A DNA stretch of 64,000 nt, counting the filler, from Sphacelaria rigidula (taxonomy: Eukaryota): the NCBI GenBank assembly GCA_964200075.2. It is 4 parts of 4 records of this genome, joined end to end, with 100 filler letters (N's around TTAATTAATTAA, not from the genome) between each part and the next. Parts side by side here need not be neighbours in the genome. Positions count along the whole stretch, not along the records: positions 32,229 to 48,241 come from CAXNAA020001518.1; 3 more parts are not named here. One strand, given 5' to 3'. The notes under the pieces are model-generated. The model saw only the letters and a list, made by a program, of their open reading frames with translations, was not told the DNA's origin and did no database searches. Positions within the stretch are counted from its first letter, which is position 1. Every line of letters begins with the position of its first letter. A program made the translations under genes and the position numbers. Shown here in pieces: positions 1-62,644 of this stretch.

Positions 1-835
1 TCCATGTGAGGCCACACACAGTATTCTTTCAAACGAAACAGAGTCGGCGCCACACCACGGTGACCAGCCGACCGTCTGTGAGTGCACCCTATCAAGCGAG
101 TTTGTAGAACCTTATCATCCGACGGAACCCACAAATCACTACTGCCAACACGCACGCGAAACAAACCATCGTCAGCCAAAGTAGCTTGACCGAAAGTCGA
201 AGGAAAATAATGAATACCGTCGCCGACTGTTTTGCGCTGCGCGGTACGAATGACATCTAACGAGGGCAGCAAACCATCGGCCTCACACGGGCTGTACACG
301 GCAATAAAAAGAACAGGCACGGTAGGAACCTTCACCAAGCGAGGTAGCAAATCTCCCAAAAAATTGCGCTCTCCAGGAATAAGTTCACTGACATACCGAT
401 ATTGTTGTTGGGCTACCAACAACTCCCGCATGTCTTCTAGGCTTGGCATCAGCCCCGAAGACTGTTCCACTTGCGCGTTCACCGCCTGATAGTCGCTGAC
501 CAAGCGGACTGTGTCCCTCTTCAGCACCGCCATCGCTGGACTCGCCCATACAGCCTGAGTATTCCTAACAAACAGACCAAATGCCACCAAAACTACGATG
601 CATGAAGCAAGCCACATGGTCTTATTCGGATCGCAGCGGCGAAGCTTAGCCTTCACAGCCTCCTTCATTGACTCTACGCGCGCTGGCGGATCACCACGCG
701 GCGCACGTCGAAATGTATCTACGCGACGAGCCAAAATATCGCGCAGACAATGTGCGCCATCGGCGCTCAGGCTCTTCTGCTCGGCCTGCCGCACACTATC
801 CTCAAGCGCACGTTCCCGTGCACCTCTCTCCTCTG
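1..835 (-). pseudogene. gypsy pol fragment: RT N-terminus fused in frame to RNase H C-terminus and integrase N-terminus
   Basis: Manual translation gives an open frame ERGARERALEDSVRQ...GDPPARVESMKEAVKAKLRRCDP...WASPAMAV...MRELLVAQQQYRYVSELIPGERNFLGDLLPR...GHRGVAPTL...WPHM that runs off position 1, which explains its absence from the ORF track. No YxDD motif is present. Confidence 0.85.
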
Positions 836-931
836 CTGGGTTTCCGGCCCCCGACCGACCAAGCGTTCCACCGCTTCATCAATAGGAGCGTCCTCCTTAA
901 TGGGCGCTCTGGAATGACCGTATGGATACGA

Positions 932-1468
932 TCACACGCCTTGCAGCAAAGTAACGGGGTTTTCCACGCCGGTTTGCACCGGCACAGCACGCGGGTGTGA
1001 CTTCTCCAACGCCAGCGGATATAGATCAATCCCGAGCTTCTTCATTGTCGCCATCCCAAATAGAGCCACGTTGTCCCTACCGGGCATGACAGCGAACATG
1101 ATGGGCTGCAACTGCACAGCTCCCCACGGCGTACGCACGCTAACAGTAATTGGCACCGTTGTGTGTGTAACCGTCACGGGAGCACCCGTGGCGGTCTGCG
1201 CCGTTTGCGGTCCGTTTTCGAACGGAATCTGAAGCTGAGCGCCGCCAAACTGCGAAGACATCTGTTCTAGCAACCCCACACCGATCGACGTGAGCGCGGA
1301 CCCAGAATCCAGAATAACGCGGGCCATGAACGAACCTACAGAACCAGGCAAGGCTAAATCTGCGCGTGAGCATTCAGCCTTGCGATCGGCAGGTACCACG
1401 CCTGCCGAAGAACCCTGTTCTGTCCCAAGAGTCACCTGACGCCAGGTCTGCCCTCCAGCACTTGGCAT
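932..1468 (-). pseudogene. retropepsin-like aspartic protease of the gypsy element
   Basis: ORF contains ARVILDSGSALTSIG and the C-terminal ALFGMATMKKLGID motif typical of retroelement proteases. Confidence 0.85.
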
Positions 1469-2529
1469 CGGTAGCTGCGAATCATCGGCCCAACCAGATC
1501 AAGTCGCCGAATATGCAGACGGCGCTATAACAGCCGTCGCAGCAGTAGGGAATGCACCAGACACGGATCTTGCCTGGCCGATGGGTTGCGAGCTATTCGC
1601 TCCAGCACTCCCCACCGAAGTATTTGCAGTTCCCACGTACACTGTCCGCCCCGCTACGGACGAACCATGAGACCCAGAGTCACCACCTGATGACGTAGTG
1701 GAAGAAACAGCAGCGGAGGAACCACCATCCGCCGCCGATTGCTTGCTACCGTGGCCGCCGCGCCCGCGTCCCTGATAAGCACCACCCCGTCCACTATGAC
1801 GACCGCCCCGAGATCGACTCGGCCGGGCCAGGCAACCAACTCCTGTCCTCCGCACGGTACATGGCTTGCACCATCAGGTTCTCTGCAAAACCCCGTTCTA
1901 CATCTGAACTGACCGTCAAAGCACGATCCCTGGCAGTTTCCCCCCCGTTTTGCTTCATCGTAAGTACCCTACGCAGGTCTGCTGCAGCCTGCGTAGCGTC
2001 ACACTTTCCACCGGTTGTAGTATACCCAGCATGCTGCTTCACAGCATCAAGCAATTCATCGGGGGTCATAGCCCGACCGTCCTTGTACGTGTCTTCGAAG
2101 CAGCGGTGAATGTAGACAGGAATGAATTGCCCTATGATGATGTACAAAAAAGTGTCGTTTCCGGCCGCGCGTGTGGTGGCTATTGGTTTCTCTGTAGGGG
2201 GCAGGGGGTGGGGCGGGGGGCGACCATGTTCACACGTTGTGACGGGTCGTCATGCCCAGCCCGTCATTGAATGTGCGACGTCTGTGGTGTCCTCCGTATC
2301 TCGGTCAGCGAAGTGATGGTAGCAAGTGGTTATCGAATGACGCGCGGTCGGCGGGAGTATGTGATTGGTCCAAATAGGGAGTTTTTTTTCGTTGGTTTGA
2401 CTTCGTGTCAGTATGCACTTGTTCTCCAGCAAACTGTCGACGCGCTCCGGCTTCGACAGTTGAACAATCCGGCGACCTCCGCTTGTATTCCGGGGGGTCT
2501 AGTTAAAAATGCACAGTGCATGTGGCCTT

Positions 2530-10500: not shown

Positions 10501-11585
10501 TCATAATATTTTGGTAATCGGCGATTTTAAAAAGTGTTTTCGCGTGCCACCGCTCATTCCATTGATCGTTTGATCTCAACGTTTGGCGATCGCGAGACAC
10601 TAGGCATCCACTTCACATTCCGATACAAAATCATCTCTGCACTTAATATTGAACCACTGACGGGCTGACCGGTTTTCGGGGGGTCCTGCGACTACCTAAC
10701 TGTCAGGTTTTGGCCCTTGGGTATTTGAACTCGATTGAAGTAATCCCCGTTGTTCTCGTGAACAAATGAAGAGGAATGCATTTTTGAAATTCTATCCCTT
10801 CATTGCGCTAGACCCCAAAAATTGTGTTTTTTATCATTGACGGTCGATAACACCCCCCTGGCGAACGAGAAACGTACTCGCCAGCCTGACAACAACAGTG
10901 GAGGATTGTGTCCTAAACGCCATCTGCCACTTTTTCTAATATCTATCGACGCTAGAACTTTCGAGTGCTGAGGAAGAATAATTTGAGAAAAATCAGAAAA
11001 GTACCCAAGAACGCAGATTGCCCAACCGAGCTCTGCATAACACAAGGGGGAGTGAAACATCCTAATCGCCCACGTGAATAAGGTTTCAGACCCTTATGTT
11101 TGATTTCTACCTGTTTATTGCGCTACAGCCGGAAATAATTGTGTTTTGAACGAAAAACGGCCGATAACACCCCCCGTTAGTTTAGCCCATAAGTCGTTCA
11201 CTGTTGAGCGCAGAGGTGGTTTTTGTCGCGGAATGTGGAGCGGATGCCCTGTATCTCGCCATCTCAAACTTCGGGAGCAAGCGTTCGCTGGGATGAGCGG
11301 TAGAATGTGAAAAAAATATTGAAAATCGCCGACAGCGAAAAAATTACAGAAATCCCCAGTTTCAGCTGAAAACAACTCTAGTCCGATTCCTTCGCGCGTG
11401 CCTCATGTGCGCTGGCCCCGGTTGTGCCATCTAGTCGCGATGGGTTGTACGTGTTCGTTACTTGATTACCCACACGAGCTGAACCACCGAAATGCTCGTT
11501 TCATGCTCTTCTCCCAGGTGGTGGCCTTGCTCTGGAGGCTTTCACCACTGCCCTCAACCAGACTTCCTCCGCGGGTGATCCGTAT

Positions 11586-13553
11586 TTGCCGACGAAGCAG
11601 TTACAGCTGACTTCACTACAGCTCTGCATTGCTTGTCGCAGCGTGTACACTCTGCGTGTGATATGTAAAGAGTCTATACCGCGCAGACTATGGACGAATA
11701 CGGCCGAGTATTCTCCGACTGTCATAGCTGGAAGTAGGGGCCGCACTGACGGAGGTCGGGTGCCGTCGTTACGAGCACATAGCGTTGTGTGGATGTCGCC
11801 TACTCATGCAGCATTCATGTCGTGGGAGACCAACCTCTTGGCTAACGTGCGAAACGTGTACTTTGACAGCATGTTCAATGATTGTCTGGACAATGTGGTC
11901 TGGCCCCTGCAGATCAGGAAGATTGTGTTTTGGAGGAGTTCCGTCGCGAAGTTCAATCAGTCTTTTTCGGGAGTGATTTGGCCTGTGTCGCTGCGGAATC
12001 CGACGATCGGCAGATGCTACAACCAGCCGATAGAGGGCGTGGCATGGCCTGCGTCGCTGCGGCAGCTAACGTTTGGAGATGACTTCGACCAGCCGATTGA
12101 GGGTGTAGCATGGCCTGCGTCGCTACAGGAGCTAGTGTTTGGAGACCACTTTGATCAGCCAATCGAGGGTGTGGCGTGGCCTGCGTCGCTGCAGCAGTTG
12201 CTATTCGGGTATGGCTTCAACCAGCCGATCGAGGGTGTGTCGTGGCCTGCGTCGCTGCAGAAGCTGACGTTCGAAGGTGACTTTAACCAGCCGATCGAGG
12301 GTGTGACGTGGCCTGCATCGCTGCAGAAGCTGATGTTCGGGTATTACTTCAACCAGCCGATCGAGGGTGTGTCGTGGCCTGCGTCGCTGCAGAAGCTGAC
12401 GTTCGAAGGTGACTTCAACCAGCCGATCGAGGATGTCTCATGGCCTGCGTCGCTGAAGAAGCTGATGTTCGGATATTCCTTCCACCAGCCGATCGAGGGT
12501 GTGACATGGCCTGCGTCGCTGCAGAAGCTGATGTTCGGATATCACTTCAACGAGCCGATCAAGGATGTGTCATGGCCTGCGTCGCTGCAGAAGCTGACGT
12601 TCGGATATTCCTTTAACAAGCTGATCGAGAGTGTGTCATGGCCTGCCTCGCTGCAGAAGCTGACGTTTGGAGATGCCTTCGACGAGCCGATCGAGAGTGT
12701 GACATGGCCTGCGTCGCTGCAGGAGCTGGTGTTTGGAAAATTCTTCAACCAACCAATCGAGGGTGTGGTGTGGCCTGCATCGCTGCAGAAGCTGACGTTC
12801 GGATATTCCTTCAACCAGTCGATCCACAGTGTGGTGTTGTCTGCCTATCTGCAGGACCTGATGCACGAAGGTATAATCAACCCGTTGAATCGTGGTTTGG
12901 TGTTGTCTACCAGCCTGCAGGAGCTGACGTGCACAGGTATCATCAACCGGTCGAATCGGGGTGTGGTGTGGCCGGCCTTGCTGCAGACGCTGAGTTTCGG
13001 AGGTGACGTCAACCAGCCGCTCGGGGGGGTGTCATGGCCTGGGTCACTGCAGGAGCTGACCTTCGGAGAAGCCTTTGACCAGCCGATCGAGGATGTGTCA
13101 TGGCCTGCGTCGCTGCAGAAGCTGACGTTCGGAGAAGCTTTTGACCAGCCGATCGAGGGTGTGTCATGGCCTGCGTCGCTGCAGAAGCTGACGTTCGGAT
13201 CTTGGTTCAACCAGCCGATCGAGGATGTGTCGTGGCCTGCGCCGCTGCAGGAGCTGACGTTCGGAGAAGCCTTTAACCAGCCGATCGAGAGTGTGTCATG
13301 GCCTGCGTCGCTGCAGGAGCTGACTTTCGGACATTCCTTTAACCAGTTGATCGAGAGTGTGTCATGGCCTGCGTCGCTGCAGAATCTGATGTTCGGAGAA
13401 GCTTTTGACCAGCCGATCGACGGTATGTCATGGCCTGCGTTGCTGCAGGAACTGACGTTCGGATATTCCTTCAACCAGCCGATCAAGGGTATGGCATGGC
13501 CAGCGTCGCTGCGGGAGCTGCGTTTGGGACGTTTCTCCAGAAATCTGATTTAG
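11586..13553 (+). CDS. FNIP-repeat (22-aa LRR-like) protein, ~25 repeats, intronless
   Basis: 655-aa ORF with 66-bp units, consensus FNQPIEGVSWPASLQKLTFGxx, which fits the FNIP/IP22 repeat. The true start is uncertain: the ORF opens at TTG and the first ATG is at ~11793. Confidence 0.9.
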   Translation: MPTKQLQLTSLQLCIACRSVYTLRVICKESIPRRLWTNTAEYSPTVIAGSRGRTDGGRVPSLRAHSVVWMSPTHAAFMSWETNLLANVRNVYFDSMFNDCLDNVVWPLQIRKIVFWRSSVAKFNQSFSGVIWPVSLRNPTIGRCYNQPIEGVAWPASLRQLTFGDDFDQPIEGVAWPASLQELVFGDHFDQPIEGVAWPASLQQLLFGYGFNQPIEGVSWPASLQKLTFEGDFNQPIEGVTWPASLQKLMFGYYFNQPIEGVSWPASLQKLTFEGDFNQPIEDVSWPASLKKLMFGYSFHQPIEGVTWPASLQKLMFGYHFNEPIKDVSWPASLQKLTFGYSFNKLIESVSWPASLQKLTFGDAFDEPIESVTWPASLQELVFGKFFNQPIEGVVWPASLQKLTFGYSFNQSIHSVVLSAYLQDLMHEGIINPLNRGLVLSTSLQELTCTGIINRSNRGVVWPALLQTLSFGGDVNQPLGGVSWPGSLQELTFGEAFDQPIEDVSWPASLQKLTFGEAFDQPIEGVSWPASLQKLTFGSWFNQPIEDVSWPAPLQELTFGEAFNQPIESVSWPASLQELTFGHSFNQLIESVSWPASLQNLMFGEAFDQPIDGMSWPALLQELTFGYSFNQPIKGMAWPASLRELRLGRFSRNLI

Positions 13554-16014: not shown

Positions 16015-16114
16015 NNNNNNNNNNNNNNNNNNNNNNNNNNNNNNNNNNNNNNNNNNNNTTAATTAATTAANNNNNNNNNNNNNNNNNNNNNNNNNNNNNN
16101 NNNNNNNNNNNNNN
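16015..16114. other. assembly linker (N44-TTAATTAATTAA-N44)
   Basis: 100-bp spacer whose core has stop codons in all six frames. Identical linkers occur at 32129 and 48242. Confidence 0.98.
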
Positions 16115-19078: not shown

Positions 19079-19912
19079 CGCCCTAAGGGAGAAAAAGAAG
19101 TCGATCGGATAAAATTCTCGTTTCAATCTTCAACACTGATACATATGCCATATGACACAGCTTTTCGTGCATAAAGGACACCCAGCAGCAAATTGTCGTC
19201 ACATCATGGTTTGAATACTAGCAGTGAGGAGTGTACGGATATTTCAGCCCACACAGCATAGCGATGGTGTATCAACAAAAAACTGCACCGCTTCCTTAAA
19301 CAATGGCAGAGGACTTCTGCCCATCTACTGACCGGGCCATTCTTTTTTTGCATCACTGCTACTAACCGTCGATGTCCGTTTACTGCAGCATCCATTTGCG
19401 CGTCCAAAACCATCCTCCAACATGTCACGGGACCGTCCTTTGTCAGCGAACGAAATCTCGGAACAGAAAGCATGGGCGTTGGATTGAGGGGGTAATTTGC
19501 TGGCTCAAGCCTTTGGATGACCGTTTTCCGTGCCTCCAGCTCAAGTGACAGGACGGCGCAGTATGCTCAACGAGAACAACCACCAACCACAGCACTACAC
19601 TGTTCCTGTGTTCAGATGTATCGGTTGCGGCTCGACTGCAAGACGTGTTGGTTCCAAGTGTGACGGTTTCATGCGGCGGAATTGTTGGTCCATGACAATT
19701 GAGTACAGGTCATGCGATGCGTTGTTTTTCCATGGAGGAGGTCGCCAACCTCCTCACTCTGCTTGTCTGCCCAAGACTTCACAGCCACAGGCTCTACTGG
19801 TCGATACAATTCCTGTCCAACCGTCACCGGGTGTCTGATTCATCCAACATACTAGTATGCTGGATGACGAGCTGTAGGATCGGGTCTTTGTCACAATAGC
19901 CTGACGAGAGAG

Positions 19913-20723
19913 GTGGACCAGGGCATCCTGTACCGAGAGGTTTTCCCGAGTGCTGCCTGGCGTGCGCTTCTCCAAATGCATAGTCCGAAAAACCAAGGTG
20001 CTAGGCTGGCTTTGCTAAACAAACTCGACAATGTAGTGATAGATTCTGACAAAGACCCGATCCTACAGCTCGTAGACCTCGAGAGTACTGCCCGAATGCT
20101 AAGGAAGTACGAAGAATTCAGACACCTGAATGATGCCCTGATACTTTCTAAGATCATCAACGGTCTCCCACCGGAATACGAAATCCAGAGAAGGATGTTG
20201 GAGGGGATGCGGGGAGATTTATCACGGGAGGTTGTGGTAGCAACAGTACGTGGTAGATCCGAGTCCAGCGCATACCAACAACTGATAGGAAAACAAGGTG
20301 CGGCACTCATGTCCAGAGGCCAGAGGTATGAGCAAAAGGTAACACACCGTGGTGATGGGAAGTCACGGGGGAAGAAGGGGTGACACGCGGGGGGAGGGAG
20401 AGAAAGGTGATGGTGCGGTGGAGGCGGCATTACAAAACCCCAACGCAATTAGTCCACCGCTGTTGCGCTGTCATGTATGCAAGGAGACTGTAGCGCATAG
20501 GGCGAGAAATTGCCCGAAACGTGTATGCTTCAGGTGCGGAGAGATGGGGCATTTCCTGGTGGAGGGTCCGAAATCTAAAGAAAAGGTCGAGGACGTGGCC
20601 CTGGCTGTGTGGGGCACAGACGAGGAAAGTCCGGTGTGTTCGGACGCGGAAAGAAAGATGTTCTTAAACTCGATTTATGCTATGCGTAAAGGTTTATATT
20701 TCCTCGAACATTATTTTTTGTGA
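19913..20723 (+). pseudogene. copia gag fragment with two zinc-knuckle remnants (frameshifted)
   Basis: LILSKIINGLPPEYE (copia gag UBN2-like) in 19913-20383; CHVCKETVAHRARNC and CFRCGEMGHF in the next frame (20349-20723). Confidence 0.8.
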
Positions 20724-32128: not shown

Positions 32129-32228
32129 NNNNNNNNNNNNNNNNNNNNNNNNNNNNNNNNNNNNNNNNNNNNTTAATTAATTAANNNNNNNNNNNNNNNN
32201 NNNNNNNNNNNNNNNNNNNNNNNNNNNN
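32129..32228. other. assembly linker
   Basis: N44-TTAATTAATTAA-N44. Confidence 0.98.
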
Positions 32229-32269
32229 GGTGGTTCCTCTTCTGATTTTTAATGCTATTGCCAGCCATT

Positions 32270-32374
32270 TTCAGGGGTCCCCCCCCCCCCCCCGAGCTCT
32301 GGAAATCCCCGGATATCTCGGGACGGTCGGCCTGTACAACTGTTCCGAGGCGATGCTCGCTGTCTAAGGGTTAA
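32270..32374. mobile_element. piggyBac-like element end (...AAGGG-TTAA); homologue at ~51820-51913
   Basis: ggaaa(t/c)ccccggat(a/g)tctc...gcctgta(c/g)aactgttccgaggc...gtc(t/c)aagggttaa in both copies. A related ttaacccatagacagcgag lies at ~52556. Confidence 0.65.
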
Positions 32375-33749: not shown

Positions 33750-34320
33750 AAAAAATCGGAGACGGAGCCCCCTCCTCCCGGAGGGCAATTTTTCGGGAAT
33801 TGTCATGATTTCTTGATTTTGTTTTGTGATTTTTTTGTGATATTTTGTGTTGAGATTGTTGAAAGAAATTGATCAACAAACACTGACAAAAACCGAAAAG
33901 CTGGCGAGCTTTGCGAGGTTCAATTAGTTGCTTCTGCTCCTTGCCCGCCTTCTCTCGACAACCTCGGATGCCGGCAACGCTCACACATATATATGTACAA
34001 TACACGAGCGCACGGTAGCGACAGCCTGTCGGCGAAGTATAAACTTTATTTCACGCCTCGCCAAATTTGCCCGGGCTACTATCGAGAGATAGTCAAGGCG
34101 CACGACATGGAACATGATGCCATAAATGTAACCATGGTATGTGGTGACGAGCTCGAAGGGGTGGTGTGTCCGTCATCTCAGCGGCAGCTGATCGCATCCG
34201 CCAACGCCTCGGCGAAAAACTAGGGGACAGCAGGCTGGATGACCCCCCACCCCTCAAAAACTCGAATTTTCGATCTTGGGGCCCACGTGTCCCGAAATAT
34301 ATATTTGACAGACCTTGGGA
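33750..34320. repeat. dispersed repeat; inverted and permuted homologue at 53683-53960 and 54450-54762
   Basis: acacgagcgcacggtagcgacagcct pairs with aggctgtcgctaccgtgcgctcgtgt (53696); cgccaacgcctcggc...ctaggggacagcaggctgg pairs with ccagcctgctgtcccctag...gccgaggcgttggcg (54533). Confidence 0.8.
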
Positions 34321-39613: not shown

Positions 39614-41280
39614 CCGCACATTAGTCTGATCTCTCAAACCCGTGGTGACACGTAGGCTCATCGTTGAATACCTTACCTGCTATTGCTTACAAGACATATG
39701 AGTCCTCGTTATTTTTTCTTGACATTCCACACCAATTACGAAAACAAACACAATGAAGTAAAATCCCACCAAAACAAAGATAAGATGGGAGACGCCAGGG
39801 AAACACGTGAGAAATAGCTTTCCCGAGTTCAACGGGACAAGAAAGAAAATAAAACTTCAGATCTGCTGAAAAAGCACACCGAAATAAAAGGTGAAGAGAA
39901 TAAGAGGTAAGAAAAGACAGATGACACAAGGGGATTAGCATGACCACCAAGCGAGGGTCAAGTCAGAAACAGCCCCAGGCACCGTCATGGATAACTACCA
40001 CAGCTGTTCGGAAGACGGCAGATGTACCAGCGAGTGTACCACCCGATGGACTACTGCTCACCTTCCGGAGGTCCTCGGTAGGCACTGGGAGAGCTCAAGT
40101 GGCAGCACAGCAGGCAACTCCTTAGCATGGCGTGCTTTGCTCCACGTTGCCATGTACGCGTTAGCCCCCTTCTCTACAACTCGGGGCCATTCGGACACAT
40201 CTTGGGCAACCTGCGTCCACGATGTCGCGTTTATTTTAAAGTACGAACAGTAGTCCGTGATACAGTGTTGTAGGCGTCTTGCTGGTCGGCCTTCCCTCGT
40301 CTTTCCTCCAACCGTCACTCCACGCATGACGATGTTGGGCAGGCGTTCATCGTGCTTGCGCACAGCGCGGGCGGCGTGTAGGAGGGTCCGTTTTATCACG
40401 GTGGCCTTAACGCACTCGCAGCTAGTTCTTTCGAGGACCTCATGGTGTGACAGCATGTGGTTGTCAGGGGCGCTGCGGCTTGACGTACGCTCATTGATGC
40501 ACCTTAGCAGGAATCCTCGATGGGCCTCTCGTAACGCGCCGAAAATGTCGTGTGCGATCGTCCAGATCTCACTGCCGTACAGCATTACTTCGATCATTCC
40601 AGTCTTCAGGAGACGAACCTTGGTGAGCAGGGCGATGTACGGGTTAACGTAACCGCTCTGCTGTACTTGTAGAAGCACGTCCACGCCGAGCCAACGCGGG
40701 TGCGGATCACCGATGCTGCTGATTTTTTCGCCAAGGTAGAAGAGAGACTCAACTTGCTCGTATCTTCGGCCCGCCCCCTCCACCTCGACCGTATCCGTCC
40801 CCATGTTCGGAGAGCGCATGTGCATGGTGACCGTCTTCTCTTCCGCCATGACGAGGCCGAATACCGCACATACTTCGACGATGTCCGCATCATTGCCACC
40901 GCTTCATTGATCGAGAAGCGGCCGAACGTCACCGTCAGTACTGCCGCTAAGATGTTGAACAGACCGGGGGAAAGCACACAACCTTGACGAATCCCCAATT
41001 CGCGTTAAACCACAGATGTATCGCCGCTGTCAAGGCGTACGCATGCCCGCATACCGTCGTGGAAATGGCGAATGATGGAAATTACCTTGGCGGGGATACC
41101 GTAGCGTGCGATAACTTTCCAGAGAAGAGAGCGGTCCACTGAGTCGTATGCCTTTTGGAGGTCGATGAAGCACATGTCCAGAGGAAGACTCTTCTCTCTG
41201 GCCAGTAAGTTCTTGGAGCCTGCTCACAACGAACATCATGTCGACTGTGGACGGCCCAGGTCGGAAACCGCACACAGATA
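39614..41280 (-). mobile_element. RTE-like LINE, 5'-truncated and decayed, with 3' UTR
   Basis: CGFRPGPSTVDMMFVVSRLQE, CFIDLQKAYDSVDR, GIRQGCVLSPGLFNI, VESLFYLGEKIS, VMLYGSEIWT and RLPNIVMRG...GRP across several frames; the YADD region is lost. The 3' UTR (39614-39945) recurs at ~63178-63455. Confidence 0.92.
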
Positions 41281-41439
41281 AACATTACAAAGAAAGCGCA
41301 GGATTTTCAACGGGTACCAGGCGACGGTCGTCTCGACTACATTTTCCTTCTACTTCAGGAGGACTTGGCTGTCAACAACGCATCCCCTTGAACACCTCTG
41401 ACCACGTTGACGTCATCTCCGTGACACGTCAATAAAGGG

Positions 41440-41474
41440 ACCGCAGCCGGCCGAAGGCCGGTCAAGACCCTGGT
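41440..41474 (+). mobile_element. Helitron-like 3' terminus (GC hairpin + CTRR-T)
   Basis: ccggcc-gaa-ggccgg hairpin (41447-41461), 8 nt, then CTGG followed by T. Confidence 0.5.
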
Positions 41475-41692
41475 ATATATACGTCCTCTGTCTCATAATG
41501 GTGGTGTTGTTGCTTTTGTTGTTATCACTGCTCCCTTTCTTCTTTCCTTTCTGAGGCCGTTGCTTCTGTCTTTTTCTGTTCCTTTCTTTCTTTTTTCTTT
41601 TATTTTTCTGTTTTTTTTGCTGCTCCTGACCACGGGCTGGATTGCTGCAATCAGCTAATGTGAGATATTCAATCGTCAATGAATCAATAAGT

Positions 41693-42237
41693 TAGGGTAC
41701 CTAAATTTGTACCGGCCCTCAACCGTGTCCGATCTGTTTTTCGATGTCTTGTCGAAATCTTCGGTGTTTTTCGAGTAAACAACACGTGTTTTTTTCAGCC
41801 AGTGCTTGAACCATGCGGTTGAACGGCTGAAGAAAAATCAGCCGGCCCCAAAATGGCCGTATTTCACGCGTTTCCCACGGGAAATAAAATGTCGAAAACC
41901 ATTGTCGCCATTGCGTAGCGGTTACCAACCGATATCTCGGCTCCTCGTTTGCAGGTGGGGGTGTGATGGGGAGCGAGTCTATCGCTAGAATGGTGTAGTG
42001 GGCAGGTAGGGTACTAAATTTGGACGCTTTCGAGATTTTCTCGAGAATTCGAATCATTCTCAAAAGGATTCTCGAAATAGACCAAAACAGGGTATATTTT
42101 ACCCCATTATGGGTAAATAGACCCCCCCTTTTTTCCTTTCTCTCGCTTCGTCTTGGTTTTATCTTTTTAACGAACCCGACTATAGTATCCTCGCTATTTC
42201 GGTTGTACCCACACAACGTTTGCCCATAGGTACCCTA
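41693..42237. mobile_element. MITE-like element with short TIRs
   Basis: ta-gggtaccta ... taggtaccc-ta (9-bp TIR plus TA flanks), non-coding interior. Confidence 0.45.
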
Positions 42238-43879
42238 TCTCATGAGACGGAGGAAGTATATATATTACTTGAAGGAAGGAGGAAACCTCACCCAACACGC
42301 ACCACACGAACTGGGTCGTGTGCCGATTACCCGAAGGGTCGGCTTGATCCCAATGAGTTGTGCATAAAAGAGGGGTTTATTCAATATGCTGCTGGATCGA
42401 CAGGTACAGTATATGCCGACATGCACCATACACCGTGTCTTCGATACAACAGATGGACCTATCGAAAGGTGGAAATCAGTGTGAAGTGAAGTTCATGGCT
42501 CGCCGGCGCTATTCGACGTGTTCGATATAGCATAACGAAACGTATGCGGAAATGAGTGAAGTGCACGCTGAGGCTCGCCAGTGCTGTTCGACAGATATTG
42601 CCATGTGCAGAGCATCTCCATATTTTCCTCGGTACGCCTTCCGTGTAAAGTGTTTTCACAACATATCGATGGCCCGTGGTGTAAATTATGTACATTATGG
42701 TGATGATACTCTTTGTATAGTTCGTGCTTTGGAGGTAGAAGAGAGTTTTGTGAAAAAAACTGAACTCAGCGATAAGCCCAGGCTAGTTTTGTTTTATTTT
42801 ACCAGGTAGGTATGGACCGTGGCCAATTCTCCAGGGTTTAGTACTTCGTGATCCGAATGCCACGTGGCCGGTGTCATGAGTTGAAGAGGTGAAACTTGTG
42901 CGGTGCTGTTCTGTGTTTGTACTCTGCGCTTACCAATGCGGTGCTACCCGGACAGCGCGGAAGAGCATGTACGAAGCCGTGCTACGATAGGTCGGGTGAT
43001 TGATTCCAGAGGAAGATGATTCATAGGTGTTTCGGACAACCTGACACACTCACCGTGCGCTAGTATTTGGGTAAAAATGCGTCAAGCAGTCTGAATGAGC
43101 GTTATTCATCGGTAACACACCCTTTCGGACGATCTTTGCTGCTTATAACGATGATTCGAACTTGAATTTCGTGAAAGCAATGGCCCAAAATACCCCCCGT
43201 CCTATCCAAGCATTTCTACAGTTGTCTGTGCTGTTCCCGTACCGTTGAATACGCGACAGCAGTGTCAACACAGCTTCTGGGGACGATCCTGGCACAGTAC
43301 ACAGCGTTGGGCACACAGGCAGTGCACCTCGGCGCCCGCTAGTCATAAGTCCTGCACTTGTCCGTTTGTGGTACAGCATTGGTTTATTGATTTATTGACC
43401 GCCACACATGAGCACGGTGCATGTGTATCTCCCTGCACAAGTCGGCCAGTCATTCGCGATATCGACATTAACTCTTCATGCATACCACGCAGGAACGGCA
43501 AGTAAATTTCGTGTATAACCGTCCCTTTTTCGATTTACAGTATATATTACAGCAATCTATCCTGTCTCCTCGTTGTGTTGAGTTCAACTTTGCTGAATAA
43601 CTCCAGCATCCAGTAAGGCTCTGAGTTTCGCTTATCGCATGGAGAGGCGGAAGTGCCAAGTATTTGCTGTACCTTCTGCAACTAGTTTCTTTCAGTCGCC
43701 CTCTCTTCAATGTTGTGGCTTTTCGAGCGATCCCTTGTTGTATAAGTCAATGCTGGGGAAGAAAACGTGGGATTTTGTGATTTTTCGGCAGAATTTGCTA
43801 GTCGTTCATGAGAAGGCATGCCCGGTTCTTACCCATTTTTTGGAAGTACGAATCTGCGTGTTTTTGCGATCATTTCCCG

Positions 43880-44827
43880 CCCTCGTTTCTCGCATGCATG
43901 CCAATGGGTGTTGCGGAAACAGGCCATTCGTAGCTGTCTGTCGCCGAGAATTTTCAATGCCTTTTTGGGCCTGGAGTCGTGGCCAGGTTGTATCAACGCC
44001 CAACCCTACAGCGCTTTACGCACTAGAGGGTCAGACATTCGCGGAACGGTATGACAAAGACGCTGAATTTCTCCTTTATCGTACCACTTCATGCGAGCAT
44101 TTGGCCCAAGTTGAGTGTGCCGGGTTCTCTTAGGTGTTGACATTTGTTGAGTATGTGTTGAAAATTCGTGATGCTATCCGCATAACACAACTCACGACAA
44201 CCCACGACTGGCTACAGAGTTCGTGTGGATGCTCCAGACCTTCTAACCTTCATGAATAATTTGGATGTGTTGTATTTTTTTCAATCGATGCCATCCTCCG
44301 ACACTGATGGTTTCAGTGCTCATGTATGCCATGGATTGGGAGCGGCGGCGCTGTCAGCAAGAAAAAAGGTAGGGTTATGCCAAGCTCTCCACGACGAAAC
44401 CAGCAGCACCATTTCATGTTTTGCAAAGTGAACGTTCGGCAGGGCAAACGCCTACCCATTTGGATCGTGTCGTAAAGGTCCACGCGAGATATTTGCAACT
44501 CGTACTCACCATTTTCTTTCGAAGTGCTGCATGTCGCATCCGACAAACACCGTTGACAATGTTCGACGCCGGTTTTGAATCCGTTCGGTGTTCTCAGGTA
44601 ACATCGCAGGGGACAACCACGAAGTGCTCATTTAGCTCGGCTATTCGACAGGGTATTCCCGGGCAGCAGCCGAAACTGTGTGCACTTGGCATGTGTCTCC
44701 GACGTTCCGGGGTGCTACTTCGGCAATGCACCTAGGATGGCTGCTTGACATGTCCATCGTATGGCGTAAGCGAGGCATACATTGTTGAGGTTCGTGCAAA
44801 CTACACCAGAGTGGCAACGGTCAATAC
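43880..44827 (+). pseudogene. decayed EsV-1-7-like repeat remnants upstream of the intact ORF
   Basis: QCT*DGCLTCPSYGVSEAYIVEVRANYTRVATVNT (~44725-44828) is a recognisable unit with a stop, out of frame with the ORF. Weaker traces are HANGCCGNRPF (~43895) and SARKKVGLCQALH (~44355). Confidence 0.5.
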
Positions 44828-47446
44828 ATGATCAAGAATAGCTGCAGCAAGGGCTGCTCCAAATGGCTGTCATATAGTGAAGCGAGAAGCTGGGAGCCGG
44901 AGTTTTGTGTAAACCATGCCAGGGCGGGGATGGCGAATATAGTGAGCAAGAAGTGCAATACTGAAGGCTGCTCCGAAAACCCAATGTACGGTACAGTGGG
45001 AAGCCGGAAAACGGGCTTCTGTGCAGGCCACGCCAGGCCGGGAATGGTCAATGTAGTCGACCAGAACTGCGGCAACGACTGCTGCTCCAAACGACCATCG
45101 AATGATGTAGTGGGAAGACGTACGGCAGAGCTCTGTGCCGACCACGCCAGGACAGGAGTGATCAACGTGGTGGACAAGAGGTGCGGCAACGACGGTTGTT
45201 CCAAACAACCATCGTATGGTGTAGTGGGAAGCCGTAAGGCAGAGTTCTGTGCCGACCACGCCAGGGCGGGAATGGTCAACGTAGTGACCAAGGAGTGCAG
45301 CAACGACGGTTGTTCCAAACGACCATCGTATGGTGTAATGGGAAGACGTAGGGCAGAGTTCTGTGCCGGCCACGGCAGGGCAGGGATGGTCAGCGTGGTA
45401 GACAAGAGGTGCGGCAACGACGGTTGTTCCAAACGACCATCGTTTGGTGTAGTGGGAAGCCGTAAGGCAGAGTTCTGTGCCGACCACGCCAGGCCGGGAA
45501 TGGTCAAGGTGGTGGGCAAGAGGTGCGGCAACGACGGCTGCTTCAAACAACCATCGTATGGTGTAGTGGGAAGCCGTAGGGCAGAGTTCTGTGCCGGCCA
45601 CGCCAGGGCAGGGATGGTCAACGTGAGGAGGAAGTGCGGCAACGAGAGTTGTTACAAACGACCATCGTATGGTGTAGTGGGAAGCCGTAAGGCAGAGTTC
45701 TGTGCCGGCCACGCCAGAGCAGGGATGGTCAACGTGGTGGACAGGAGGTGCGGCAACGACGGTTGTTACAAACAACCATCGTATGGTGTAGTGGGAAGCC
45801 GTAAGGCAGAGTTCTGTGTCGGCCACGCCAGGGCGGGAATGGTCAGCGTGGTAGACACAAGGTGCGGCAACGACGGTTGTTCCAAACGACCATCGTATGG
45901 TTTAGTGGGAGGCCGTAAGGCAGAGTTCTGTGCCGACCACGCCAGGCCGGGAATGGTCAACGCGAGGAGGAAGTGCAGCAACGACGGCTGCTCCAAACAA
46001 CCATCGTATGGTGTAGTGGGAAGCCGTAGGGCAGAGTTCTGTGCCGACCACGCCAGGGCGGGAATGGTCAACGTACTGGGCAAGAGGTGCGGCAACGACA
46101 GCTGCTCCAAACGACCATCGTATGGTGTAGTGGGAAGCCGTAGGGCAGAGTTCTGTGCCGGCCACGCCAGGGCGGGAATGGTCAACGTGGTGGCCAAGAG
46201 GTGCGGCAACGACGGCTGCTCCAAACAACCATCGTATGGTGAAGTGGGAAGCCGTGGGGCAGAGTTCTGTGCCGGCCACGCCAGGGCAGGGATGACCAAC
46301 GTAGTGGACAAGAGGTGCGGCAACGGCGGTTGTCCCAAACAACCATCGTATGGTGTAGTGAGAAGCCGTAGGGCAGAGTTCTGTGCCGACCACGCCAGGG
46401 CAGGGATGGTCAACGTGAGGAGGAAGTGCGGCAATGAGGGTTGTTCCAAACAACCATCGTATGGTGTAGTGGGAAGCCGTAAGGCAGAGTTCTGTGTCGA
46501 CTACGCCAGGGCAGGAATGGTCAACGTGGTGGACAAGACATGCGGCAACGACGGCTGCTCCACACAACCATGGTATGGCGTAGCGCGACGCCGTAAGGCA
46601 GAGGTCTGTGTCGACCACGCCAGGGCAGGGATGATCAATACACCGAGGAAGAAGTGCAGCAACGACGTCTACTCGAAACAACCATCGTATGGTGTAGTGG
46701 TGGGAAACCGTAAGTCAGAGTTCTGTGCTGACCACGCCAGGGCAGGGATGGTCAACGTAGTGACCGCGAGGTGCGGCAACGAGGGCTGTTTCGAACAACC
46801 GTCTTATGGTGTTGTGGGAAGCCGTGAGGCAGAGTTCTGTGCTGACCACGCCAGGGCAGGGATGATCAACGTTGGAACCAAGGGGCGCGGCAACGAGGGT
46901 TGTTTGACTGCCGTATCCCGAGCAACCAAGAGTCGACAGGGAGACATCTTCGATGAAGATTCTACACAAGACGGACAACCTCATCATCCTACCAGTGACA
47001 ATGACGGTGCGGGTGATGTTGAATTCGCCCCTCTTTCGCTCGCAAGTTCCGAACTTGGTAAAACACCGTCACAGCCGGCCGAGGATGCCGAAGAACGACC
47101 GCGGGTGAAAAGGTCGCCCACGAGGGTGAAAGTGGAAGATTTCGCCCCTCTCGATGGTTTTGGGCAGAGCTGGCAAAAAAAGATTGATGTGGCCGCCTGC
47201 GCTGGTGGGGGTGGGAGTAGCAGGATTGGCAGTAACTCCAGCGGTGGTTGTCATGAAAGAAAAAAGAAGCGTATTTGCATCAGGCCGTCAGTGGTTCGTG
47301 CATACCCTCGGGCAGAAGACGACGTTGCGATGGGCGCTTCTTCAGTGGTACTTGACGGTGGGAATGACGAGGACGTGAAGGTGCAGCTGACAGTTTCAGC
47401 TTCGTTTCCCCCGTCGTGTAAGTTTGCCAACACGAACTCGAGCTAG
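44828..47446 (+). CDS. EsV-1-7 cysteine-rich repeat protein (18 C-x4-C-x16-C-x2-H units) with a disordered C-terminal tail, intronless
   Basis: 872-aa ORF from ATG to TAG. Units are mostly 114 or 111 bp, consensus CGNDGCSKQPSYGVVGSRKAEFCADHARAGMVNVVDKR. The tail has RPRVKRSP, RKKKR (NLS-like) and VKVE (SUMO consensus). Confidence 0.93.
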   Translation: MIKNSCSKGCSKWLSYSEARSWEPEFCVNHARAGMANIVSKKCNTEGCSENPMYGTVGSRKTGFCAGHARPGMVNVVDQNCGNDCCSKRPSNDVVGRRTAELCADHARTGVINVVDKRCGNDGCSKQPSYGVVGSRKAEFCADHARAGMVNVVTKECSNDGCSKRPSYGVMGRRRAEFCAGHGRAGMVSVVDKRCGNDGCSKRPSFGVVGSRKAEFCADHARPGMVKVVGKRCGNDGCFKQPSYGVVGSRRAEFCAGHARAGMVNVRRKCGNESCYKRPSYGVVGSRKAEFCAGHARAGMVNVVDRRCGNDGCYKQPSYGVVGSRKAEFCVGHARAGMVSVVDTRCGNDGCSKRPSYGLVGGRKAEFCADHARPGMVNARRKCSNDGCSKQPSYGVVGSRRAEFCADHARAGMVNVLGKRCGNDSCSKRPSYGVVGSRRAEFCAGHARAGMVNVVAKRCGNDGCSKQPSYGEVGSRGAEFCAGHARAGMTNVVDKRCGNGGCPKQPSYGVVRSRRAEFCADHARAGMVNVRRKCGNEGCSKQPSYGVVGSRKAEFCVDYARAGMVNVVDKTCGNDGCSTQPWYGVARRRKAEVCVDHARAGMINTPRKKCSNDVYSKQPSYGVVVGNRKSEFCADHARAGMVNVVTARCGNEGCFEQPSYGVVGSREAEFCADHARAGMINVGTKGRGNEGCLTAVSRATKSRQGDIFDEDSTQDGQPHHPTSDNDGAGDVEFAPLSLASSELGKTPSQPAEDAEERPRVKRSPTRVKVEDFAPLDGFGQSWQKKIDVAACAGGGGSSRIGSNSSGGCHERKKKRICIRPSVVRAYPRAEDDVAMGASSVVLDGGNDEDVKVQLTVSASFPPSCKFANTNSS

Positions 47447-48241
47447 CGCTATGATGGCGTACTTGCTGCACGCTGATCTAAAGTCCAACGCCAGTATCTC
47501 TTGGGGGTTTCTTCACATGCGCCGCTGTCGCCCATATTTTCGCGTGTGTCGTTGCAACAGGGTGAAGGTGTTGTTGCGTAACGTGGTGCCTGTGCTTTGC
47601 GGTTCCCTGTTGTTGTAAGTTCTTGCTTTGTGGAAGGACCTATTGGAACTTTTTTTTCTTGTGGCGGATATGAACACCGCTACACATGTCCTGTTGATTA
47701 GCGAACGTACTCATGATCTTGCATGCCAGTGACAGGGGTGGGTGGGTGGGTGGGTGGGTGGGACGTACTCATTTTTTTCAGTGCCTTTGTCGTTTGGCCA
47801 TTGACAACGCTGTAATGCGTGAGAGGACCGCGTGCTTAGAGGACCGCGCCGTAGCTCGAAACACCTCACGATCGACGTTGTCCAAAACCAATCGGGCCAG
47901 TCCCTGCAGGAACCACGCCCCTGACCCCAACCCCAACACTAACCCTAGCCCTGACCTTCACCATAGGGATGTTCAAATTCCGATGCGGTCCTCCATGCAC
48001 GCGATCCTCTCACGCATTGGGACGCACCCCTTTCGAGACGGAGCACAGGGTGACGGGGTGGGGGGCATTGGACGATTGTTTTCACGAAGGAACCACTGTA
48101 AACAGCAAATTGTGCGAATTGAGGTTTACCTTTGAGATGAGGTTCAAGCCTAAAACAGTGTTTTCCCCACACTTTCAGCGATAGTGCCCAATGACGTTTT
48201 TGTCGGCCTAATGCTCCTCGATCGCGTAGATACTTTTTCAG

Positions 48242-48341
48242 NNNNNNNNNNNNNNNNNNNNNNNNNNNNNNNNNNNNNNNNNNNNTTAATTAATTAANNN
48301 NNNNNNNNNNNNNNNNNNNNNNNNNNNNNNNNNNNNNNNNN
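48242..48341. other. assembly linker
   Basis: N44-TTAATTAATTAA-N44. Confidence 0.98.
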
Positions 48342-54762: not shown

Positions 54763-57700
54763 GCGTTTGCCGCGCATTATTGATGGTGGACATTGCACTG
54801 TTGTTGATGAGAAGTTTACCTCGTATCTTTTGGCATCTTGTCGTATTCATTTCACACCCTAGACAAAAGGTTATTTTGTACAAAAATGTAGTGCGTACAG
54901 CATGGAATCTTTTGTCTAATGCAATAGGCGCAATAGTCGATACTGTACGCAGTAGACTTTTTGACGGTGTATTCTCTTGTCCAGGGTGTGATTTGTTTGT
55001 GTTTGATCCAGAAGCCCCTTCTGTCTTCAGGATAGGCATTATCACTGTTGCGTTGAAGGTACGCATGCGGTGATGACAGATTGACAACGTACAACAACTT
55101 TATATATACATGCTGGAAAATAACAGCACTACGCTGTGCTGGACAGCGTCAGACAGTTGGTAGTCTGGGGGGGGGTGTATTTTCCAATTTAGGGACATTT
55201 GACAAAGCTTTTGGCCCCCAAGCAGGGACATGGAAATCCACTACGAGTACACGCGCCCTGTCCTGATTACATAAACAGGGCCGAGGGGGAAAAAGCAAGA
55301 ACGCCGCAATTTCAGCGGGAACTGTCTTGTTGGTATTAAAACTTGGCTATAGGAACATGTGCTCGGTTTGGACAGGCCAGGAAGCCGTGAGCCTCGCACG
55401 AAAGAGAGTTTTTCTCGGTTGCGGCCCCATTATCGCGCTTTTTTCTTAGTGTCGAGTTGCCCCTCTGACCACTGGCCGGGCAGTACATAGATCTGAAGCT
55501 TTGGTCATACTAATTGTTGACAACATGACTACTTGATTTTAGTCTCGAAAAAGTTCTCAGAATTTTTATGGTTTGGGGCAGGTGATCAGTGGGCCCAACT
55601 CATCGAAGAAAAATAAAACAGATATACTGTATACGACCATCGACTTCACTTGACAAATGACTGCATGACCAGACCACCTACTCGTACACTCGTGGCCTGT
55701 AAGGGAGCTGATCGAAGTGGTCCAAGTGTCGAGTGGTTAATCGAAGGGTTCAATGGTCGATCAAATTTGCAGCTTCAAAGATGCTGAGGGGGGGGGAAGC
55801 GATCCCGCGGAGCTTTCAGCCGATCCCACCACAAGAACGCTTGCTGATGGCACTGATATGTCACTGTGGGATAATCTGCTGTAAATAGAATGAGGGGCGG
55901 GAAGGGACGGTCTTAGGGCCGTTATTATCGACACAGTTTTTTGGGAGGTCGTCCTAATCTTGGGCGTCTTGAAACTTTTTTTCGCACCTTCTCCCGAAAT
56001 GAGGCGGCGAGATTTTTTCGCCAAGCCTTCATGTTTGGCGAAAGTCCGATTTTTCGCACTCCAGAACAACACTCTGTAGAGCTGCCCTTGGCGCACGCCG
56101 TGGCGCTCGCAAGCATGCGATAGTCTCTAGGAACCTTGCTAGTAACACCCTGGGCTATGTCGTAGAGTAAAAAGCACCGCGGGGCGGCGGTATCCATCTC
56201 CTGAGACGGTCTGTGCCCCGGCAGCGGTGTTGGAGCTTTGGGGGTCAACCACGGTGTTCATCGTTTGCAGACGTACGCACCTTCGAAGTGAACAGCAGAA
56301 ACAATCCAGTAGCTATCTACTTGCCTGCTGTACTATCATGTGTGTACGCTACCGCGCCGTCTGAAGAGTGTATAGCTGGTGGTTTAATAGGGTGTATCTG
56401 CGCATACAACTCACAGAAAGCAAGCATGCTGCAATCTATCTACGGGACTGCTACAGTCGGCCTTTTCACTCATGTGTGCTGCTCCACTTGTAGCACTCCG
56501 AGAGAGCCGGTCGATCACGCCCTAGCCTGTCCGACTGCCCCCCCGTGTCACAGAGATACCACAGTTATAAACGCCATACACAGGTAGGTAGAATAACACT
56601 GTCCTTTATTTTGCCGGCGAAGGNNNNNNNNNNGCAAGCAAACGACGAGATCAGCACCATCTGTAATGAGATATCTAACAGCAAGAGTAGATCAAGATAA
56701 TAATGAGCCCTCGGCGATTGCCGAAATTTCACACCTTCTCTCATTTTTTCATTTGTCGATAATAACGGCCCTTGGACCACGAGGATGGATGATTTGATCG
56801 TTGAATTGACATCCTTTTCACTTGAAGAATGAGCCATACGTGCAGATGATCAGTGCCCTTCATCCACTTGAGGACGGTGCCACGATACTGCGGGCATCAT
56901 GGGTTTTGGGGCAGGCACTACCCCTTCGCGAGGAGCAGGACACTAAAAAATCTGCGCTGTTTTTATATTTTCCTTTTAGGGGGTGATCGAATGTCGACAT
57001 CGGCAAAATGACTTGGTTGAATCTGCATACAGAAGTGCACCGCTGAGAAGGAAGGTAGTGTGTCCGCAGGAACATGCTCGTTGGGGAAAAGTTGAACTTA
57101 CGCAGTCGGTTTGACGGTGGCAAACAACCCAAAATCGTACGTACATGGCTTGTACTCGGTGGTCCGTCTCCCAAACTTACATATCATATGTCGACACATC
57201 AATCCCCCAGAGTGCCCTGTATGGTGCATACGCAGCCGCAGCAGTCGGAGCCTGTGTGAGATCGCCCTTTTCAACACGTCCACGGGGCAATATCATACTG
57301 ACTATCCTGACAGACCCAGGTGTACCAAATCCGACAACCATGTGTGTATGATAAAACATGGTTGGCGCAATTCCAAGATTAATCTGCTTGAATATATCCT
57401 AATGGAATGTGCAGATTGTTTGTTGTATGAAAAATGCCATGCGGGGTTTCAAGCCTGACCGGCCTCCTTGACGCAAGGCGGGGGGGCCCAGACAAACGGC
57501 CCAGACAAACTCAATATCGACCCCGCACCTTCGCAGGCTGAGCCGTGTACACAGCAAGGAATGCCACATACAGGACCACTCTTATTCTGCACCGACTTTG
57601 CAATGAATGTCATACGATGAGACTAATCCGTAACGACGATGTTTTCGGTCAACAGTACAGTGGAACAGTACGGCACCGCGGTCTGCAACGTCGTGCACAG

Positions 57701-61556: not shown

Positions 61557-61761
61557 TTATTGTTGTCTGTTATAAGGATCGGCCCAAAGGTTGTTGTTGC
61601 GGTAGAGTTTACCGGCGTTGAGCTACAAATGTTCATGATTAATATTACTTTATTTGAGTCTGAACAACGAGAATCAGATTCGCCGGTGAACTAGCCTCAG
61701 GGGTTGAGCGAGCAAGTACACTCGCAACAGGTGGTGTTTGCGACTGCTCCGCTTTTCTTAC

Positions 61762-61890
61762 CGTTTTGAACGCTGGGTTTTCCATGTAGGGATAGCTGCC
61801 AAACTGTACGTTGGGATGTGCGGACACCGCTTCATTCAGGCTGTCGACGAGGAGGAGCTCGTCAGCCGACAGAACGATTTTTTTCACATG
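61762..61890 (-). CDS. internal exon of an FAD synthase/CinA-like molybdopterin-binding-domain protein
   Basis: ctcgcAG|CAT...ACG|GTAAGA, 129 bp, phase 0/0, HVKKIVLSADELLLVDSLNEAVSAHPNVQFGSYPYMENPAFKT. The DE...L......P.V..GSYP pattern followed by V.TLES resembles the KH-like subdomain after the MoCF_biosynth domain of FLAD1/CinA. Upstream exons were not found in the window. Confidence 0.82.
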
Positions 61891-62644
61891 CTGCGAGTAC
61901 GGAACAACAACAACAACAACGGCGGCAGCAGCAACGACAAAGGGCAAGTGATGGGGTGGTACCCAGACCAGGGTATGCAGCCGAGTAGTTCGCAATATTT
62001 TCCCCTCCCGGACGTTTCCACGAAGGGCAACGCTACAAGAGCAGCCTGAATACTTCCTTGATAATACAATTAACCCTTAGTCTTTCTGGATCATGCATAC
62101 TTTTTTTCACTCGAAATTGGTGCCAATTATACACAAGACTAACCTCGCGGTCTAAGGGTCAAGGGAACGTTTGGTAGACACAAGTAGGATGATGCGGCAC
62201 CTTATCATACTCCATTCATCGACGATATTCACTGGAAATCAAGCGCTGCACGACTACTATACGGGGGAAACAATCGAGCACGAGTTCGGGTCGCGCGGGC
62301 AGCACCGTTTAATGTGAATCCTGGATGTGCAAGTGCCCTCACTGGAGATTTGCCGCAAGCGGCAAGTCAAAAGGCTCGGCAAAGGACAAGCTACATCATG
62401 AGTTATGCACGGAAGTTCTGTCTCGTTCATGACAACCTGGAACAAATCAGAAGACATTACAAGGGTAGTAGATCCCCACCTCTCGCACCCCCCCCCCGTG
62501 GTGGGTCGAGAAAAATGCTGTTCATCTCTTGAAATTGCCTCCATTGACGCGGTTCAGTCATACCCAGTACAAGTAGTCTGCCTCCTTTACTTTTCCCTCA
62601 CTCTCGCTTCAAGTAAATTACCCTCCCCACCAACCACGTGCCAA

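Follow-up and report, generated by a model that had tools for sequence, protein, structure and literature searches.

The window analysed here is a stretch of 64,000 nucleotides of Sphacelaria rigidula (assembly GCA_964200075.2), filler included, in which four parts are joined end to end; positions 32,229 to 48,241 come from CAXNAA020001518.1 and carry, at 44828..47446 on the plus strand, the gene with which this report is concerned. The gene is a complete open reading frame (ORF) of 872 codons followed by a TAG stop, and its product, a protein of 872 amino acids (aa) here called P0001, is made up of a tandem array of 18 EsV-1-7 repeats and a C-terminal tail. The frame is uninterrupted from ATG to TAG (the stop-to-stop frame starts at 44789, and its first ATG lies at 44828); a preliminary description of the locus as one intronless ORF with 18 units therefore stands for the continuous frame and for the unit count, although "intronless" can be said only of an uninterrupted frame. 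Searched against Pfam, P0001 matches PF19114 (EsV_1_7_cys) in 18 stretches (E 4.3e-244; 788.4 bits against a cut-off of 25), and no other Pfam family reaches its cut-off in the protein, the tail included. Long antisense frames are also present over the array and are a by-product of the stop-poor repeat. Judged by its sequence, the locus is an intact gene that adds an unusually long member, with 18 units, to an established family, EsV-1-7, whose function is unexplained; the family assignment and the sharing of the repeat with viruses, both proposed at the outset, are correct, and both are already published as far as the available portions of the literature go. The nearest named relatives come from S. 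rigidula itself (at most 62% identity over 31% of the query) and from Ectocarpus, the best overall match among the proteins searched has 43% identity over 54% of P0001, the exact sequence was not found among approximately 15 billion predicted proteins, and no close relatives were confirmed in viral contigs or metagenome contigs.

The 18 Cys3His units occupy 44828..46873 on the plus strand, as delineated by Pfam, a unit table, a hidden Markov model (HMM) of the array's own units, and an identity matrix. Delimited at the Cys-x2-His anchor, the units are mostly 38 aa long (37 aa in units 8, 11, and 15; 39 aa in unit 17), and Tandem Repeats Finder reports a period of 114 with 16.8 copies and 84% matches over 44995..46904. 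The canonical Cys-x4-Cys-x16/17-Cys-x2-His pattern, which in P0001 takes the form C-x4-C-x17-C-x2-H, is found in 15 of the 18 units, and 69 of the 72 ligand positions are kept; given this ligand pattern, each 38-aa unit is likely to be a small Cys3His zinc module. The departures are a C-x3-C spacing in place of C-x4-C in unit 1, a Tyr that replaces the His zinc ligand in unit 15 (aa 559; 46502..46504, plus strand), and a Tyr that replaces the second Cys ligand in unit 17 (aa 615; 46670..46672, plus strand, a coordinate derived from the residue number). Just beyond the array, a 19th unit begins in degenerate form as GRGNEGC, in which Arg stands at the Cys1 position (46883..46903, plus strand). 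The array is basic, as had been claimed, with a net charge of +53 over 682 aa. With 18 units it is also the longest among the 123 relatives examined, a set limited by the search method, in which the next longest have 12 and 11 units; its homogeneity, by comparison, is not unusual (P0001 ranks 10th of 97 in within-protein identity), and homogeneous arrays are common in the family.

The array is followed by a tail of 190 aa, for the most part low in complexity, most of which forms a conserved C-terminal module (aa 691-862; 46898..47413, plus strand). When compared with 1.84 billion representatives, the tail has five relatives, all unnamed proteins (E 9.3e-27 to 1.4e-7; 36-47% identity), one of which, a model of 615 aa, retains residual EsV-1-7 units immediately ahead of the tail; no tail homology beyond residual repeat units was found in the Sphacelaria proteins P0017 and P0004. 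The alignment conserves an acidic QPAEDAE, RVKxE, GGSSRIGSNSS, C-x-ER-x-KKR, and ψK[VML]EL-x-V-x-A. Both motifs named in the preliminary description are in place: VKVE, of the ψKxE type (aa 767-770; 47126..47137, plus strand), appears as VK[SL]E, IKVE, or MKIE in the five relatives, and the basic cluster RKKKR (aa 811-815; 47258..47272, plus strand) contains a K-R pair that is invariant in the six-sequence alignment. A second conserved motif, VKVQL (47375..47389, plus strand), corresponds to ψK[VML]EL in the relatives, and its K and L are invariant. A basic cluster together with two ψKxE-type motifs is frequent in nuclear, SUMO-regulated factors. The term "nuclear-type tail" is partly upheld, in that all three of these elements recur in the five relatives, and nuclear location itself is predicted; the conserved tail may represent a nuclear or regulatory effector end.

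The array was amplified in place. Across units 4-15 (66 pairs), identity is 82.5-94.7% in DNA (mean 88.8%) and 62-89.5% in protein (mean 78%), and these units are hence similar to one another rather than nearly identical in DNA, as had been stated. Units 1-2 are the most divergent (60-77% DNA identity), and edge units are usually the most divergent in arrays. When set against 639 units of 120 relatives, every one of units 3-18 finds its best match inside its own array (16/16), which indicates that the array grew in place; shared variants, moreover, combine in mosaic fashion across the units, which argues for exchange between them. No higher-order repeat was detected: mean identity by offset is flat (0.83-0.87), and the lowest P, 0.036 at offset 4, is not corrected for the eight offsets compared. 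Growth in place would have proceeded by tandem duplication together with exchange between units, and such a history would produce recurring toggles at silent and replacement sites alike.

This last point bears on the suggestion that the variation in the array is restricted to certain positions. The variants to which attention had been drawn are all real in the unit alignment: among the 18 units, the residue after Cys2 is S in 13, F in 2, Y in 2, and P in 1; the column two residues further on (the third after Cys2, hereafter the Q/R column) holds Q in 10, R in 6, W in 1, and N in 1; a K/R column holds K in 9 and R in 5, plus E in 2, T in 1, and G in 1; a D/G column holds D in 10, G in 7, and N in 1; and the linkers are varied. 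The claimed restriction, nevertheless, was not borne out inside the array. Of the 38 columns, 23 are variable in units 4-15, and the replacement variants per column fit multinomial scatter (15 invariant columns against 14.7 expected; variance/mean 1.00 against 0.99 in simulation, P 0.49), with the same result when units 3-18 or units 1-18 are used. Replacement sites in units 4-15 carry 36 variants over approximately 89 sites (0.40 per site) versus 9 over approximately 25 silent sites (0.36 per site), and silent toggles are as evenly balanced over all 18 units (GGC/GGT 7:7, TGT/TGC 9:8, GGG/GGA 9:9, GCA/GCG 9:5). Shared and singleton variants are divided alike between the silent and replacement classes (Fisher P 0.28). 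The pooled ratio of replacement to silent variation (pN/pS) is 0.80 in units 4-15 and 0.61 in all 18 units, there being too few sites for a value per column. Because silent sites toggle equally and the replacement variants are randomly scattered, the toggles are the expected outcome of amplifying and exchanging a few unit variants, and by themselves they are silent on a code.

A different picture emerges across the family. The 639 units of the 120 relatives were aligned to the unit HMM, which was built from the P0001 array, and homogeneous arrays were defined as those with at least five units and a mean identity of at least 0.60; 27 such arrays, related to one another, were available besides P0001. 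Column by column, the entropy of the P0001 array is correlated with the entropy found across the family (Spearman 0.50, P 0.0013), and column variability in P0001 correlates with the relative within-array variability of the 27 other arrays (Spearman 0.59, P 9e-5). In 25 of the 27, the variability of the Q/R column is more than 1.5 times the array mean. This is the highest count of the 38 columns, and it is followed by those of the first variable linker residue (17/20), the column two residues past Q/R (17/27), and the D/G column between Cys3 and His (16/27); in the class of relatives with a nuclease-like motif (described below), the column two residues past Q/R is equally variable (Hw 0.80). 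The Q/R column has a fixation-index-like (F_ST-like) value of 0.07 for the 41 non-nuclease arrays and of 0.01 for the 37 nuclease-class ones. Most other variable columns lie at roughly 0.1-0.4, and positions between Cys1 and Cys2 differ chiefly from one protein to another (0.21-0.33). In these alignments the diversity of the Q/R column, where R and Q dominate family-wide and H, K, and I come next, is almost wholly within arrays and not between them. The idea of a few switchable positions on a fixed scaffold accordingly fares differently at the two levels, finding no support in the P0001 array alone (where variants are unclustered and silent sites mirror them) and gaining some from the prominence of the Q/R column in the other arrays. 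As far as aligned sequences can tell, this family-wide hot column is a real lead, not evidence of a code; a least-constrained polar surface site would give a similar pattern.

The relatives also offer hints at what the repeat may do. A C-terminal E.DE..H...NPD motif is present in 68 of the 120 relatives (a regular-expression count), and the consensus of these 68 proteins has extra conserved Cys pairs (C-x2-C ... C-x2-C) between the array and the motif domain. One of them, P0102 (from a viral metagenome according to one source), was modelled with AlphaFold2 (AF2) at a predicted local distance difference test score (pLDDT) of 89.8. The top Foldseek rows for this model are all PD-(D/E)xK nucleases, the best being an Hjc resolvase at E 2.8e-3, with none at or below 0.001. 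A structural aligner places the catalytic domain of the homing endonuclease I-Bth0305I first (3r3p_A; Z 8.5, root-mean-square deviation (rmsd) 3.1, 93/97 residues), with Vsr at rank 2 (1cw0_A; Z 7.6, rmsd 3.4, 109 aligned) and again at rank 5 (1vsr; Z 6.8, rmsd 3.5, 108 aligned). The I-Bth0305I match, which spans the whole domain and tops the list, is consistent with the E-D-H motif that is typical of the EDxHD family, to which I-Bth0305I belongs according to the part of its description that was available (PMC3239194). The same source places NUMOD DNA-binding motifs N-terminal to the catalytic domain of I-Bth0305I, and it is this position, N-terminal to the nuclease domain, that the EsV-1-7 array holds in P0102. 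What is shown is that relatives join the repeat to nuclease domains.

The N-terminus of a Tc1/mariner transposase is its DNA-binding part. An EsV-1-7 domain stands at the N-terminus of one such enzyme, TcMar-2_Ec32 of Ectocarpus, as reported in the available text of its description (PMC12477816). A fainter resemblance is to the SQUAMOSA promoter-binding (SBP) domain (PF03110), whose first zinc site presumably has a Cys-Cys-Cys-His spacing similar to that of the EsV-1-7 unit: positions 1-34 of the domain, the first zinc site alone, were matched below threshold (24.3 bits, cut-off 27, the score being a total of four units, none of whose stretches passes by itself), and the unit has no second zinc site. 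The original proposal that the array reads nucleic acid, then, gains indirect support as regards binding, by analogy with the relatives that carry the nuclease motif and with the transposase fusion; the positive charge of the array and the sub-threshold match to SBP, a DNA-binding domain, are compatible with it. Separately, in P0128, P0129, and P0130, all long gene models, 5-12 EsV-1-7 units follow domains unrelated to the repeat (ubiquitin hydrolase, dynein-type AAA, and EF-hand); these may be true fusions or merged gene models.

An AF2 model of units 4-7, built from an 87-row alignment with the metal not modelled, reached a pLDDT of 90.2 and a predicted template modelling score (pTM) of 0.50, the individual beads being confident and their mutual orientation not. 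In each modelled unit, short strands form at Y-G-V and at M-V-N, and Cys-x2-His adopts a helix of one turn.

Several observations indicate that the frame is maintained. There are no stop codons in it, against 1.9-5.2 expected without selection (P 0.006-0.15), as computed from 80 distinct variants or from 168 differences from the consensus in units 3-18, and all length changes between units are in frame. The stretch 46800..48241 was compared with four sequencing runs, all of which behave like DNA assemblies, and no run listed as carrying the sequence is recorded as RNA; the tail is identical in three of the four, which come from two studies, and the remaining one, from a third study, has a single replacement, K784R.

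The explanation preferred here, to which a probability of roughly one half is assigned, is that the string of basic zinc modules in P0001, an array built in place, binds DNA multivalently and that the conserved tail has a regulatory role. Under this explanation the locus would be a single-exon gene of the host genome (to go by its uninterrupted frame) in the expanded brown-algal EsV-1-7 family, and the basic array would serve as a multivalent DNA-binding, or other nucleic-acid-binding, module. DNA targeting is the best-supported role because the repeat recurs in a transposase and, in more than half of the relatives, together with a motif whose domain has a nuclease-like fold in the one protein modelled; for P0001 itself, the binding of zinc and of DNA, the nuclear location, and the regulatory role are all inferred. 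A number of findings weigh against this explanation. P0001 and its named brown-algal relatives do not have the E.DE..H...NPD motif (by regular expression), P0001 has no catalytic domain, and the nuclease argument would thus be carried over from another class by analogy. The motif domain was not recognised in Pfam, PHROGs, NCBIfam, or PDB sequence searches, and the nuclease fold comes from one modelled protein with a middling best Z score. The model of units 4-7 has no match among solved folds, whether by Foldseek (best E 1.5, threshold 0.001) or by VIA (48,161 chains, all with Z below 2); for 38-aa beads of uncertain orientation such an outcome is expected of a model and is no sign of a new fold. 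The weak Foldseek rows mix protein-binding LIM, PHD, B-box, and RING modules with DNA-binding zinc modules, no solved relatives were found in two sequence searches (a third gave one chance-level match, E 2.3), and neither a binding study nor a named ligand for EsV-1-7 was found in the available portions of the literature. Finally, the pN/pS value and the two units with a lost ligand point to weak constraint on the array, and the transposon-rich neighbourhood speaks against a live gene.

These last observations are the substance of one alternative, namely that P0001 is a young, nearly neutral or decaying copy, recently expanded under little selection at a locus that is possibly silent. The equal density of silent and replacement variants and their random scatter over the columns are in keeping with such a copy, as are the two units without a zinc ligand, the retroelement remnants around the locus and the very high-copy repeat directly downstream of it, and the absence of the exact protein from the predicted proteomes searched. 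A decaying copy is nevertheless hard to reconcile with 872 codons free of stops and frameshifts, with the retention of nearly all ligand positions, with tail motifs shared by five relatives, and with a tail that is unchanged in three sequencing runs and differs by one replacement in the fourth, and this alternative is held to be unlikely. Also unlikely, if slightly less so, is the proposal that the repeat is a zinc-stabilised platform that binds proteins or other non-nucleic-acid partners without contacting DNA, serving as a general adaptor in nucleases and transposases. It would accommodate the LIM, PHD, B-box, and RING modules among the weak fold rows, the designation of the IMMEDIATE UPRIGHT (IMM) protein as "of unknown function" (in the available text of PMC7457493), and the statement, in the part of a preprint at hand, that none of the Ectocarpus EsV-1-7 genes has another Pfam domain; set against it are the recurrence of the repeat in enzymes that act on DNA (the Vsr-like nuclease and the transposase), the location of the P0102 array where I-Bth0305I carries its DNA-binding motifs, and the strongly basic character of the array.

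A more ambitious alternative, and the one favoured in the preliminary description, is a programmable modular reader comparable to transcription activator-like effector (TALE) or C2H2 arrays, in which a small set of specificity residues would bring every unit into contact with one base or a few, and shuffling of units would retarget the whole. The family-wide evidence lends it some appeal, as the Q/R column is the most variable in nearly all other homogeneous arrays, with its diversity residing within arrays, the column two residues past it is equally variable in the nuclease class, and the variability profile of P0001 follows that of the other arrays. Those arrays, however, are interrelated, their units were aligned to a model derived from P0001, and the least-constrained surface position would look similar. 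In P0001 itself, replacement variants do not cluster by column and silent sites toggle equally, the Q/R column has only two common states (CAA/CGA), the column two residues past it is S in 16 of the 18 units, many columns vary rather than two or three, and neither a higher-order repeat nor any sign of block shuffling is seen; a reader of this kind is accordingly considered very unlikely. Least credence of all is given to an extension of the idea, a frankly speculative one, in which EsV-1-7 arrays would join the modular DNA readers of nature as a third kind, base preference would be set by the residues on either side of the conserved Pro that follows Cys2 (the R/Q/H/K/I and S/T/N/C/H columns), and P0001 would read a long periodic nuclear target such as a satellite or telomere-like sequence; a periodic target would follow, if a code exists, because the 18 units are alike except for the R/Q choice.

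Comparison with known systems helps to place the multivalent DNA-binding array proposed here. P0001 has the same repeat as the brown-algal EsV-1-7 family (PF19114/IPR043822, which includes Ectocarpus IMM) and, as reported for all Ectocarpus members, no other Pfam family, and it differs from the relatives examined in its unit count and in a tail module of its own. The family is described as the largest orthogroup across brown-algal genomes in the available part of a preprint, and as one of the most remarkable brown-algal family amplifications in the available part of another (Denoeud et al. preprint). Family genes tend to cluster, according to the portions of the literature at hand, whereas the unit HMM found no other copy, and hence no tandem cluster of family genes, in six frames of the window. 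Nor is P0001 an orthologue of IMM by the published criterion, a specific N-terminal domain ahead of five repeats (as given in the available text of the Denoeud et al. preprint), since its first unit starts at Met1, which leaves no non-repeat region at the N-terminus, and it has 18 units instead of five. With the metagenomic proteins that combine EsV-1-7 units with a Vsr/EDxHD-like nuclease, P0001 shares the unit and the column that varies most within arrays, yet it has no nuclease motif and its tail is unrelated. I-Bth0305I (PDB 3R3P) resembles the P0102-type relatives in having a DNA-binding N-terminus followed by a Vsr-like C-terminus, although its N-terminus is composed of NUMOD/helix-turn-helix motifs and not of zinc repeats, and P0001 has no nuclease domain. 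TALE and C2H2 arrays resemble P0001 in being tandem series of small modules, in the basic array, and in one consistently most variable column at the level of the family; they differ in that neither column clustering nor, in the pooled counts, an excess of replacements is seen within the P0001 array and in that the unit model matches no solved fold of either kind.

As regards its setting, the locus looks like host chromosome and not provirus, within the limits of a 64-kb view. No giant-virus gene families were found among the 94 window ORFs scanned against Pfam (16 of at least 150 aa at E <=0.01 and 78 more of at least 110 aa at E <=1e-4), and the matches obtained are to retroelement remnants, an FNIP-repeat ORF, and an FAD-synthase exon. 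The retroelement remnants are weak or partial matches at 3..1498 (minus strand) and 19868..20720 (plus strand), to integrase zinc-binding, gag aspartyl protease, copia-type gag, and CCHC zinc knuckle families. The FNIP frame (11466..13553, plus strand) is a stop-to-stop frame of 695 codons with 14 FNIP repeats (PF05725, E 8.2e-108), in which codon 110 encodes the first Met; it resembles the EsV-1-7 gene in being a long, unbroken frame of repeats and in its high GC content at third codon positions (0.69 vs 0.65). According to the available part of a 2026 preprint, no putatively virus-derived orthogroups of brown algae are larger than FNIP and EsV-1-7. At 61648..62076 on the minus strand, a frame matching the middle domain of FAD synthase (PF24102, E 9.9e-11) is probably one exon of a host housekeeping gene.

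Downstream of the P0001 gene, a (GGGT)n microsatellite of 6.8 copies (47736..47762) lies between the 3' flank and the very high-copy repeat (47780..48241), in which summed contig depth reaches up to approximately 2 million, compared with approximately 70 for the gene. Contigs of two sequencing runs end just before the microsatellite, many contigs break at 47810/47811 within the high-copy repeat, and short loose ends of the telomere-repeat-like sequence CCTAACCCTA abut 47960 in three of the four runs (X1, X3, and X9). Runs of N occur at 16015..16114, 32129..32228, 48242..48341, and 56624..56633; the first three consist of paired 44-base runs at a spacing of approximately 16.1 kb, and for this reason these three look like masking rather than assembly gaps.

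In summary, the P0001 locus is an ordinary, if record-length, member of its family. As more than half of the relatives carry a nuclease-like motif and the Q/R column is consistently variable, the family as a whole yields a testable hypothesis, namely that EsV-1-7 repeats may bind DNA, with the Q/R column as the first candidate for specificity. Given that the same repeat is present in the developmental regulator IMM, this DNA-binding hypothesis would bear on IMM as well as on P0001.

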